From Candidatus Altiarchaeales archaeon (lineage in GTDB: Archaea; Altiarchaeota; Altiarchaeia; IMC4; SCGC-AAA252-I15): a stretch of 64,000 nt of DNA. Location of the stretch: contig WJMO01000005.1 of NCBI GenBank assembly GCA_014727915.1, positions 447,243-511,242 on the forward strand, in the 5' to 3' direction. The translations under genes and the position numbers were made by a program. Of this stretch, positions 27,584 through 41,157 are shown in pieces (within the stretch, counting starts at the first letter, position 1; each line of letters opens with the position of its first letter). A model generated the notes under the pieces. It was not told the origin of the DNA. It saw only the letters and a program-made list of their open reading frames with translations, and did no database searches.

Positions 27584-27632
27584 TTCAAACCACCTGCTCG
27601 ATTAATTTATGTTAAGCGGCTGTATAAATAAG

Positions 27633-28001
27633 ATGGCATTCATACGAAGGGATGCGCTGGAGTTCATGCTCGGAGTCTCAAGGGAAGCGCATCCCAGGGA
27701 GTTCATAGGATTGCTCAGGGGTGATGAAAACACTGTGAGGGAGGTCATGGTCATACCTGCCAGCCTGTACGGGGAAGGGTTCTCCCACTTCAACTGGATG
27801 CACGTGGGCATGGACAAGAGCATAATCGGCAGCGTTCACAGCCACCCTTCCACCAACAACAGACCGTCCAAGACCGACGTCAGGAACTTCTCGAAGACTG
27901 GGGACATACATCTGATAATAAAGTATCCCTATGAGACGGCCGCGGACGTCGCATGCTATGACAGCAGAGGAAACAGGCAGGACATCATAGCATTGGAATG
28001 A
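27633..28001 (+). CDS. JAMM/MPN+ metalloprotease
   Basis: PREFIGLL and HSHPS-x5-S-x2-D JAMM motif. Confidence 0.9.
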   Translation: MAFIRRDALEFMLGVSREAHPREFIGLLRGDENTVREVMVIPASLYGEGFSHFNWMHVGMDKSIIGSVHSHPSTNNRPSKTDVRNFSKTGDIHLIIKYPYETAADVACYDSRGNRQDIIALE

Positions 28002-28035
28002 ACATAAATGTGCAGGAAATTCGAAACCGACAAGC

Positions 28036-28043
28036 TTTTATAT
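28036..28043 (+). promoter_or_regulatory. TATA box for the predicted ncRNA
   Basis: TTTTATAT ending 23 nt upstream of the start of the end-paired structure. Confidence 0.6.
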
Positions 28044-28065: not shown

Positions 28066-28265
28066 GGGTGTAGGGAAATCAAGTAATTCGCCCAATAGGC
28101 ATCCCATTGATAACCGGATAGGGGGTTGTCGGTTCAACTTCGGTTGAACTCTCTCAGGAGTGATGCGGTGTCTGCAATCCGTCAAGCTTACGCAAGATGG
28201 TGGTTGGGGAATACTTCCGAAAAGGGAAGTGGGCGTAAAAAACCCTGCTTGACCCTATAGCACCT
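28066..28265 (+). ncRNA. Unassigned structured ncRNA closed by a canonical BHB motif (predicted 181-nt circular product 28078-28258)
   Basis: GGGUGU/GCACCU, AGGG/CCCU 4-bp helix, AAA and AUA 3-nt bulges, UCAAGUA/UGCUUGA. Internal hairpins include a C(UUCG)G loop. Upstream TATA and downstream pyrimidine tract. Confidence 0.7.
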
Positions 28266-28398
28266 GCTTCTTCTGCGACCTTTTTCCATACGGTCCCAGG
28301 ATACCGTCAATTCCGCCTAATCGCCTTGAAAAATAGACTCTCTCGACCTTCCATTATATAAACCCTGACACGAATAACTAGATACACGAGGGTGGAAG

Positions 28399-28815
28399 AT
28401 GGCTGAAGAAATCATAAAAATCGGGGAATTGACGCCGAAGGCCAAGCGAGTCAACGTTGTGTTCAAGGCGGTCAGCAAAGAGGATGTGAAGAAGGTAAGG
28501 TCAAAGAAGGATCATACGCCCCATGTGGTGACAGAGGCGACTGTGGGCGACGAGACGGGCACCGTTCTACTGACATTATGGGATGAGAACGTCGAGCAGC
28601 TGGAGACGGGCAAGACGTACAAGCTCGAGAACGGATATGTGACACTCTTCAAGGGCACCATCCGGCTTAACATCGGAAAATACGGAGAGCTTTCGGAGGC
28701 GGAGGACCTTGACGTGGAAGTCGACATGGAAAACAACATGTCAGAGAAGGTGTTCGAGGAGTACCAGAGGAACAGGAGATACGAGGGATTCGGCTCCGGG
28801 AGCTTCTGGCCTTAA
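28399..28815 (+). CDS. Single-OB-fold ssDNA-binding protein (RPA/SSB)
   Basis: VGDETGTVLLTLWD, LENGYV, RLNIGKYG motifs. Confidence 0.9.
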   Translation: MAEEIIKIGELTPKAKRVNVVFKAVSKEDVKKVRSKKDHTPHVVTEATVGDETGTVLLTLWDENVEQLETGKTYKLENGYVTLFKGTIRLNIGKYGELSEAEDLDVEVDMENNMSEKVFEEYQRNRRYEGFGSGSFWP

Positions 28816-40383: not shown

Positions 40384-41157
40384 ATGCTGAGCCTCTATCG
40401 CGGGATAAAAAGCCGTTGGGAGAGATTTTTGGGTATGCTGCCCGGGTGGCTTTCCCCCTGGGTCAGGGACCTGGCAGACGTCACCTTGACTGTGCTCGTC
40501 GTCATAGTCGTGCTGAAGGTCTTGTTCAGGGCCGACATGCTGGTGCCTTTGGTGGTCGTGACCTCCGATAGCATGGTCCACACGCCAGGCGACAACGACT
40601 GGCATTCGTGGATGGTAGACCATGGGCTAACAGAAGAGATGATATCCTCGTTTCCCATGAAGAGCGGTTTCAACATGGGCGATATGATACTCGTAAAGAA
40701 CCCGAGGGCGGAGCTGGGGGACATAATCATATATGAGAGGGACCTGGACCACCGCCACTTCAGCTCAAACGACCCAATAATACACCGTGTGGTCGGGGTG
40801 GTGCACGTTGAAGGGTATGAGATAGGCGCTGTGGAAGGGACCTTAGACTGCATGAACGACCAGTCCATGATGAGATACGTGGATATGGTGAGGGCCTGCC
40901 AGGATAAAAACGGCGAATGCCCGTACACCAGGTACCCGAAGGATGGCATGTTCAAGCTGTTCATAACGAAAGGCGATAACAACGAGGGTTCGGACCAGTG
41001 CAGCTCAAGGCTTAAGATAGCCTACCCAGTCAACGACGCCCAAGTCACCGGCAGGGCCCTCGTAAGGCTGCCCTACGTAGGATGGCTGAAGCTCATACTC
41101 AACTTCGTGCTGAGCATACCCCTGCTCATATTCAAGATACTGACCTTCCAGGTCTGA
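40384..41157 (+). CDS. Signal peptidase I (Sec11/S26B type)
   Basis: VVTSDSM (Ser), IIHRVV (His), TKGDNN. Confidence 0.88.
   Translation: MLSLYRGIKSRWERFLGMLPGWLSPWVRDLADVTLTVLVVIVVLKVLFRADMLVPLVVVTSDSMVHTPGDNDWHSWMVDHGLTEEMISSFPMKSGFNMGDMILVKNPRAELGDIIIYERDLDHRHFSSNDPIIHRVVGVVHVEGYEIGAVEGTLDCMNDQSMMRYVDMVRACQDKNGECPYTRYPKDGMFKLFITKGDNNEGSDQCSSRLKIAYPVNDAQVTGRALVRLPYVGWLKLILNFVLSIPLLIFKILTFQV

Follow-up and report, generated by a model that had tools for sequence, protein, structure and literature searches.

To judge from sequence comparison, the locus studied here is a genuine conserved gene for a folded non-coding RNA of about 200 bases, whose family is absent from Rfam. It lies in a 64-kb stretch of an Altiarchaeales contig, hereafter called the window, and its two ends pair into a motif of the bulge-helix-bulge (BHB) kind. 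We propose that the locus is an independent non-coding RNA gene, that its transcript would be cut at the BHB by the splicing endonuclease EndA, and that RtcB would circularise the excised piece into a functional circle of 181 nt. For this joint reading we estimate a probability of roughly 0.6. The processing route is already known biology; the novelty lies in a gene that stands alone, in its fold and in its family.

The RNA occurs more than once in the genome and in its relatives. BLAST found a second copy in the same genome, 48 kb upstream of the locus (C12:427326-427525, minus strand, 82% identity), and further copies in 7 of 40 relatives, which makes 8 of 41 genomes with the window's own. 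The second copy (C12:427333-427532 as a full match of 211.5 bits), about 20 kb before the start of the window, sits between a 476-aa ORF without Pfam match and a CBM96/disaggregatase-repeat protein. Six sequences from four genomes could be aligned. In this alignment the two halves of the BHB are invariant, and the flanks outside it are short and unconserved, in agreement with the preliminary description of the locus, which had considered these flanking 'exons' too small to be a tRNA or an rRNA.

A covariance model built from those six sequences (R1; 200 positions, 59 pairs) gave 24 full-length matches. These lie in 18 genomes, out of 49 in the order and 61 in the phylum Altiarchaeota. By family, the RNA was found in 14 of 20 genomes of f1, 2 of 2 of f3 and 1 of 1 of f4, and in none of the genomes searched in f5 (22), f9 (8), f8 (4) or f2, f6 and f7 (one each). 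Laxer filters produced three weak matches in the 22 genomes of f5 (E 0.0027 to 0.96), none of which was accepted as a member; the only one to cover the full span, L044, looks like coding sequence. A core-only model (R2, 79 positions) recovered the same loci in 16 of 61 genomes and added no new members, its three borderline matches being rejected at no more than 4.6 bits with R1 when filters were off. An exact-pattern scan of one genome per species returned four loci, all in MAGs of Candidatus Altiarchaeota or uncultured archaea, and these look like the copies already known from G001-G003. Pattern scans gave 19 loci in metagenomes, 4 of them true members and 15 chance matches, and no match in viral contigs. 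As far as searched, the family is limited to three families of one Altiarchaeota order. The working set comprises 28 sequences, 24 genomic and 4 metagenomic (alignment A5). In a FastTree tree of this set (199 columns, midpoint root), the first tandem copies of G004 and G013 join copy a of G001 and the second copies join copy b, and the two copies of the window's genome group by genome, as do those of G018. This topology tentatively suggests two old paralogue lines kept across genera.

All BHB elements of the preliminary description, and its TATA box, were found in place when the sequence was checked (Table 1). The motif is of the hBHBh' type, with two 3-nt bulges on opposite strands, a 4-bp spacer between them, helices adjoining on both sides and the matching handedness: read directly from the sequence, each bulge sits 3' of its central-helix strand. 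The handedness rule follows from tRNA numbering (position 37/38), and in a canonical BHB EndA cuts after the second base of each bulge. The same closure appears in the minimum free energy (MFE) fold of the plus strand, at -76.4 kcal/mol (z -3.45; none of 200 shuffles is as stable). The minus strand gives a poorer fold (z -1.79, equalled in stability by 10 of 200 shuffles).

Table 1. Features of the RNA locus in window coordinates, and tandem homologues in the coordinates of their own loci
Feature	Position	Strand	Remarks
Promoter	28028-28043	+	BRE-like CGACAAGC, then TATA box TTTTATAT at 28036-28043; read from the sequence, BRE-TATA block aligned in homologues
BHB outer helix, 5' strand GGGUGU	28066-28071	+	pairs with GCACCU 28260-28265; in MFE fold
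BHB central 4-bp helix, 5' strand AGGG	28072-28075	+	pairs with CCCU 28253-28256
5' bulge AAA, 3 nt	28076-28078	+	predicted EndA cut between 28077 and 28078
BHB inner helix (P1), 5' strand UCAAGUA	28079-28085	+	pairs with UGCUUGA 28246-28252
P2, 5' strand AUUC.CCCAAU	28086-28096	+	pairs with 28203-28212; in MFE fold; missed by first model
Conserved core	28097-28173	+	P3 (28097-28103/28167-28173) and P3b (28105-28107/28163-28165) close a four-way junction with P4, P5 and P6
P4 hairpin	28109-28115/28124-28130	+	loop GGAUAGGG
P5 hairpin	28131-28138/28143-28150	+	UUCG loop
P6 hairpin	28151-28153/28158-28160	+	
P7 hairpin CCGUC..GC-UUAC-GC..GAUGG	28179-28200	+	95.6% paired; in L025 a fully paired 9-bp stem with UUCG loop
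P8 hairpin ACUUCC-GAAAAG-GGAAGU	28213-28230	+	7 of 7 pairs changed on both sides
P9 hairpin GGG-CGUAAAAAA-CCC	28231-28245	+	97.1% paired; GG-UUCG-CC instead in L025, L027 and L030
BHB 3' half	28246-28265	+	inner UGCUUGA, central CCCU, bulge AUA 28257-28259, outer GCACCU; predicted cut 28258/28259
Predicted excised piece, 181 nt	28078-28258	+	inferred from BHB geometry; most likely circularised
T5 run, likely transcription terminator	28281-28285	+	read from the sequence
Tandem pairs	L022 1501-1923; L023 1501-1912; L024 1277-1702		

Taken in a single sequence, the motif is within chance expectation. We scanned the window for the bare BHB geometry (outer helix, 4 bp, two 3-nt bulges and inner helix, over a span of 40-400 nt and with at most three G-U pairs). 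At 4+4+6 bp the 64 kb hold 27 matches against 14.9 +/- 3.4 in 10 Markov-1 simulations, and at the observed 6+4+7 bp there is one, the RNA locus, against 0.4 +/- 0.7 simulated. It is the conservation of the central helix and of both bulges, free of indels in 28 of 28 homologues, that lifts the BHB above chance. In every one of these sequences the central helix has four of four standard pairs and the bulges are exactly 3 nt long, though other helices vary in length.

The helices of the motif also covary. In the alignment of 24 sequences, the central helix is paired in 100% of cells, the inner helix is 94.6% paired, with 6 of its 7 pairs changed on both sides, and the four modelled pairs of the outer helix are 92.7% paired, with three of the four changed on both sides. 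Across the family, the central helix shows a compensatory change from GGGG/CCCU to GGAG/CUCC in L034, and the outer helix changes from GUGC/GCAC to AGGC/GCCU, AAGC/GCUU and GUGU/AUAC. This outer helix, formed by leader and trailer, reaches 10 bp in distant members. What had been described as a textbook BHB from one sequence is conserved among 28 homologues, with compensatory changes in all three helices.

By a strict definition, which demands at least two outer and at least three inner contiguous pairs touching the bulges, 22 of the 28 BHBs are canonical; the window copy has six and seven such pairs. The other six are relaxed, in that a mismatch adjoins a bulge or the outer helix is weak (the first copy of L023, the second copy of L022, L026, L030, L032 and L033), and might be poorly cut by a homotetramer EndA. 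Within the 5' bulge, positions 1 and 2 vary (the first base is A in 14, U in 12 and C in 2), and 27 of 28 sequences have A at position 3; the 3' bulge begins with A in all 28. Conservation is found on the bases that would be kept in the excised piece, a pattern that fits selection on the product together with the predicted cut sites and is not proof of it.

Compensatory changes extend to the interior of the RNA. In the 24-sequence alignment, which like the others used for pair counts is fitted to the model and hence biased toward structure, standard pairs make up 92.8% of cells, compared with 76.8 +/- 0.6% for shuffled partners (0 of 500 shuffles as high), and 46 of the 59 pairs have compensatory changes on both sides, which are still plain in the raw rows. 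When partners are slid by 1-3 columns, pairing falls to 36-44%. Four of the six interior helices first drawn for the window copy (GAUAACC/GGUUGUC, GGUUCAAC/GUUGAACU, CCGUC/GAUGG and ACUUCC/GGAAGU) stand by covariation, and the remaining two had to be corrected. CGCCC/GGGCG is unconserved, with 51.6% of cells paired, and gives way to the covarying helix P2. At the place of P2, RNAduplex detects a helix whose sequence changes between members, at -6 kcal/mol or lower, in 20 of 24 homologues, for example CCCUGA/UCAGGG, GUCAAA/UUUGAC, UCUCGU/ACGAGA and ACGCAUCA/UGAUGCGU. GCAUC/GAUGC is paired in 89.6% of cells, but it competes with the better-supported combination of AGGCAUC/GGUGUCU and CAU/AUG (9 pairs, 7 with double changes). 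In addition to the junction of the conserved core, hairpins P8 and P9 form a second four-way junction with P1 and P2. A circular fold of 28078-28258 retains the same helices and architecture.

After the predicted ligation, the inner helix would be capped by a loop of 7 nt, which reads CCCUAUA in 16 of the 28 sequences. Its sequence complements that of the conserved P4 loop, (U)AUAGGR, and L031 has CCCUAAA opposite UUUGGGG. Scored as a contact, AUAGGR-CCCUAU is paired in 78.5% of cases against 76.6% in shuffles (26 of 500 as high), with only two double-change cells. As there is no covariation beyond conservation, we treat this loop-loop contact as no more than a lead. A mutual-information-style scan for tertiary pairs returned only isolated pairs. 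Columns 78 and 206 of A5, which correspond to 28123 (the last base, R, of the P4 loop) and 28166 (the unpaired Y between P3 and P3b), vary together, with A-U in 11 sequences, G-C in 4 and G-U in 6; either a tertiary pair or phylogenetic noise could account for this.

The signals around the RNA are those of a stand-alone gene with its own promoter, as the preliminary description had claimed. All 25 of the solo or first copies have a loose TATA-like hexamer 29-56 nt ahead of the model start, and the BRE-TATA block upstream of the RNA has the consensus CGATAAGTATTTATAT. Downstream, a run of at least four T lies within 50 nt at 14 of the 24 unit ends open to examination. Three genomes of one genus carry head-to-tail tandem copies, with model ends 3, 14 and 18 nt apart and a single upstream BRE-TATA per pair; a TATA-like box was found before none of the three downstream copies. 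Second copies that lack a TATA box and follow the first at 3-18 nt must be co-transcribed with it and then released from the common precursor. A BHB at each unit boundary would achieve this release.

The enzymes for such a route are encoded in the genome. Its single EndA is 178 aa long, has an N-terminal and a catalytic domain and is of the homotetramer type; RtcB is encoded as well. A homotetramer EndA is generally taken to require the canonical BHB motif. In the mechanism that we propose, transcription would start about 25 nt downstream of the TATA box and end near the T run. The short leader and trailer would then pair to give the canonical hBHBh' motif, the homotetramer-type EndA would cut after the second base of each bulge, and RtcB would join position 28258 to position 28078, so that the circle would read ...CUUGACCCUAU up to the ligation point and AUCAAGUA... 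beyond it. In this circle, the conserved loop CCCUAUA would cap the inner helix, and the rest would comprise about ten helices and two multi-helix junctions. We infer cleavage, circularisation and function, the functional product presumably being the circle and not the tiny ligated 'exons'. Its putative role would most likely be that of an exonuclease-resistant RNP scaffold, or of a catalytic RNA.

We hypothesize that, once the central helix has lost its 5' strand, CCCU would become available for a contact with the P4 loop. A bolder proposal builds on this, and we advance it tentatively, at somewhat below even odds. The family may represent a new archaeal RNA class, a free-standing gene whose sole product is a stable structured circle made by the tRNA-splicing enzymes, kept as two old paralogues that are often in tandem and working as a catalytic RNA or as the core of an RNP. 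Removal of the 5' exon would free CCCU(AUA) to dock on the P4 loop (U)AUAGGR, and processing would thereby switch the RNA to its active fold.

Alternatively, the BHB could serve end maturation only, as in pre-16S and pre-23S rRNA. The circle would then be a transient, reopened or trimmed later, and the working RNA would be linear, possibly permuted. We regard this as unlikely, at about one chance in five by feel of the evidence, which points both ways. A leader-trailer stem bearing a BHB is the architecture of archaeal pre-rRNA, whose circles are described as intermediates in the text of PMC7714728 and PMC12918454, and the tandem units require a release mechanism. On the other hand, neither a second conserved processing signal nor another closing helix came to light, and the loop that ligation would make is itself conserved, both in its CCCUAUA form and in the A at the ligated 5' base (27 of 28). 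Neither point is decisive.

Improbable, in our view, is that the staggered 3-4-3 closure is not cut by EndA and has a structural or protein-binding role within a linear RNA, with a convergent likeness to a BHB. The window simulations, in which chance BHB geometry is fairly frequent, and the six relaxed members would agree with it. Such an element does not explain well why all 28 sequences keep the exact 3-4-3 spacing without an indel when the length of other helices varies, nor why second tandem copies have no promoter. Archaeal EndA is moreover reported, in the text of PMC7714728, to cut BHBs whether the context is tRNA, rRNA or mRNA.

The RNA could also be a strongly diverged or circularly permuted form of a known one, such as RNase P RNA, SRP RNA, an H/ACA or C/D guide or an rRNA fragment. 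A precedent exists in the SRP RNA of Thermoproteus, a permuted RNA restored through a BHB (PMC4731332). For the Altiarchaeota RNA we consider this very improbable. Searched with Rfam 15, the window contains at the gathering threshold only a tRNA-Lys (11854-927); at E up to 10 the locus matches only Ysr49, with 15.1 bits against a cut-off of 95, and 20 homologous loci at E up to 1 give a single unrelated match, outside the RNA. These permissive scans of the linear sequence, which the preliminary description had proposed, yielded no related match even locally, and neither the locus nor its 20 homologues belongs to a known Rfam family. Furthermore, the genome encodes elsewhere a full-length RNase P RNA (G000:C3:339220-339508, minus strand; 80.5 bits, just below the gathering score of 84), an SRP RNA (159.6 bits) and a 5S rRNA (72.5 bits), none of which has BHB flanks. 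The preliminary description had found no RNase P, SRP or 5S signatures in the locus, and it is none of these RNAs, nor a tRNA.

The RNA has a conserved GUGAUG that resembles box C, but on inspection its GAUG pairs in P3b, with compensatory changes. The sole CUGA, the candidate box D, lies within the covarying inner helix, where UUGA, CCGA, CCAA and UUAA also occur, and is not conserved as a box. A reading of GAGUGAUG as a K-turn or box C/D element was ruled out by register and covariation. We also discarded a reading as a circular ωRNA: the circular ωRNAs described in the text of PMC12558985 have no link to BHBs, and no tnpB lies near the locus. Full-text literature searches turned up neither an account of such an RNA nor one of non-coding RNA genes with BHB flanks in Altiarchaeota; PMC3491384 concerns Nanoarchaeum, and Altiarchaeota or other circles are not mentioned in the text of PMC12918454.

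That the downstream SSB/RPA-PpsA genes have the RNA as their cis-regulatory leader or riboswitch is hardly credible: an SSB-like OB-fold gene does lie near it in 5 of 21 loci, but in two of these five the gene is on the other strand or side, 16 of the 21 loci have no SSB gene, the second copy in the same genome lies between unrelated genes, and in the window the RNA has its own T run and the SSB gene its own TATA-like box (28355-62).

In the window, a Prok-JAB gene (27609-28001) precedes the RNA, and the SSB-like OB-fold gene (28399-28815) and then PEP synthase follow it. Across the 21 loci, the RNA keeps no constant position or orientation upstream of any one gene family. The SSB-like gene is found in both orientations, and the other recurrent neighbours are a DUF357 gene (5 of 21 loci) and PEP synthase. 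We read these recurring genes as inherited local synteny. The link to RPA/SSB genes, upstream of which the preliminary description had proposed to look for homologues, is one of local synteny only and holds for 5 of the 21 loci. The neighbourhoods contain no RNA-processing, RNA-modification, reverse transcriptase, transposase or Cas genes, and no conserved protein partner gene was found in them. In G001, a genome of the same genus (loci compared: L019, L035, which is the window locus, and L036), one copy has the upstream neighbours of the window (JAB and others) and the other has the downstream ones (SSB, PpsA). This split suggests rearrangement or recombination at the RNA genes.

To our knowledge, the archaeal splicing endonuclease is known to act on tRNA introns, on rRNA processing stems, on two mRNAs and on one permuted SRP RNA. 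Archaeal tRNA introns with a functional RNA inside, such as the C/D box sRNA in the tRNA-Trp intron, are released as circles, and metazoa have tricRNAs. The biogenesis predicted for the Altiarchaeota RNA is the same, in that an EndA-recognised BHB delivers an excised piece which, circularised by the tRNA ligase, is the functional product. The Altiarchaeota RNA differs from these circles in that there is no tRNA, its 'exons' being a leader and a trailer that measure about 10-25 nt and are unconserved; it has its own promoter, can be in tandem, and measures about 180 nt with some ten helices, among which no C/D or H/ACA boxes were found. With circular pre-16S and pre-23S rRNA it shares a BHB-bearing leader-trailer helix around the whole functional RNA and the freeing of units from a polycistronic precursor; however, it is no rRNA, having no Rfam rRNA match, and is only 181 nt long.

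Large orphan structured non-coding RNAs are known from bacteria, among them OLE, GOLLD, ROOL and raiA. By analogy only, the Altiarchaeota RNA is like these in its complex multi-junction fold supported by covariation, the lack of a known function and the narrow range. It differs in being archaeal, far smaller and linked to the splicing machinery, and no relation in sequence or structure was found to those families, which Rfam holds.

The permuted SRP RNA of Thermoproteus is likewise a stand-alone gene, neither tRNA nor rRNA, whose product arises by BHB cleavage and circularisation (PMC4731332), as we predict here. It is a permuted member of a universal family, whereas the Altiarchaeota genome has a normal SRP RNA elsewhere and the new RNA matches no known family. 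In Haloferax, the EndA substrates named in the text of PMC7714728 are tRNA, rRNA and the 5' UTR of HVO_1309. The BHB intron of this H. volcanii 5' UTR also lies outside tRNA and rRNA, is processed by EndA and was found as an excised circle (PMC7714728, in its text); it is a short piece of an mRNA leader, whereas the Altiarchaeota RNA is a conserved and highly structured gene.

If our reading is true, a free-standing RNA delivered through a BHB would show that the tRNA-splicing machinery is a general archaeal route to stable circular non-coding RNAs, and archaea would gain a rare example of a large orphan structured RNA. From the family follows a precise and testable prediction, namely a junction that joins 28258 to 28078. 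It could also provide a compact natural scaffold for BHB-driven RNA circularisation.

A second BHB-like motif was observed in the window, at 40803-41110 on the plus strand. This perfect hBHBh', with Watson-Crick pairs throughout (GCACG/CGTGC, TTGA/TCAA, bulges AGG and CTT, GTATGAG/CTCATAC), falls within an ORF of 257 aa (40384-41157) that has a weak signal-peptidase S26 match. Its predicted excised piece, 40814-41104, is 291 nt long, exactly 97 codons. Homologous proteins align through the motif region in 25 of 25 relatives searched. Since no matching BHB was found in the five orthologous loci with the gene on the scanned strand, the motif is likely due to chance or specific to this genome.

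As for the tRNA genes, the Rfam tRNA model finds 27 in the 1.8-Mb genome, which is 90.6% complete. About 12 of these 27 matches are 97-194 nt long, which indicates that splicing is heavily used in the lineage. ARAGORN reports 16 intron-less tRNAs and 7 intron candidates, one with an intron of 190 nt (C11:99288-99551). So few detectable tRNA genes at this level of completeness suggest many large or non-canonical introns, or split genes.
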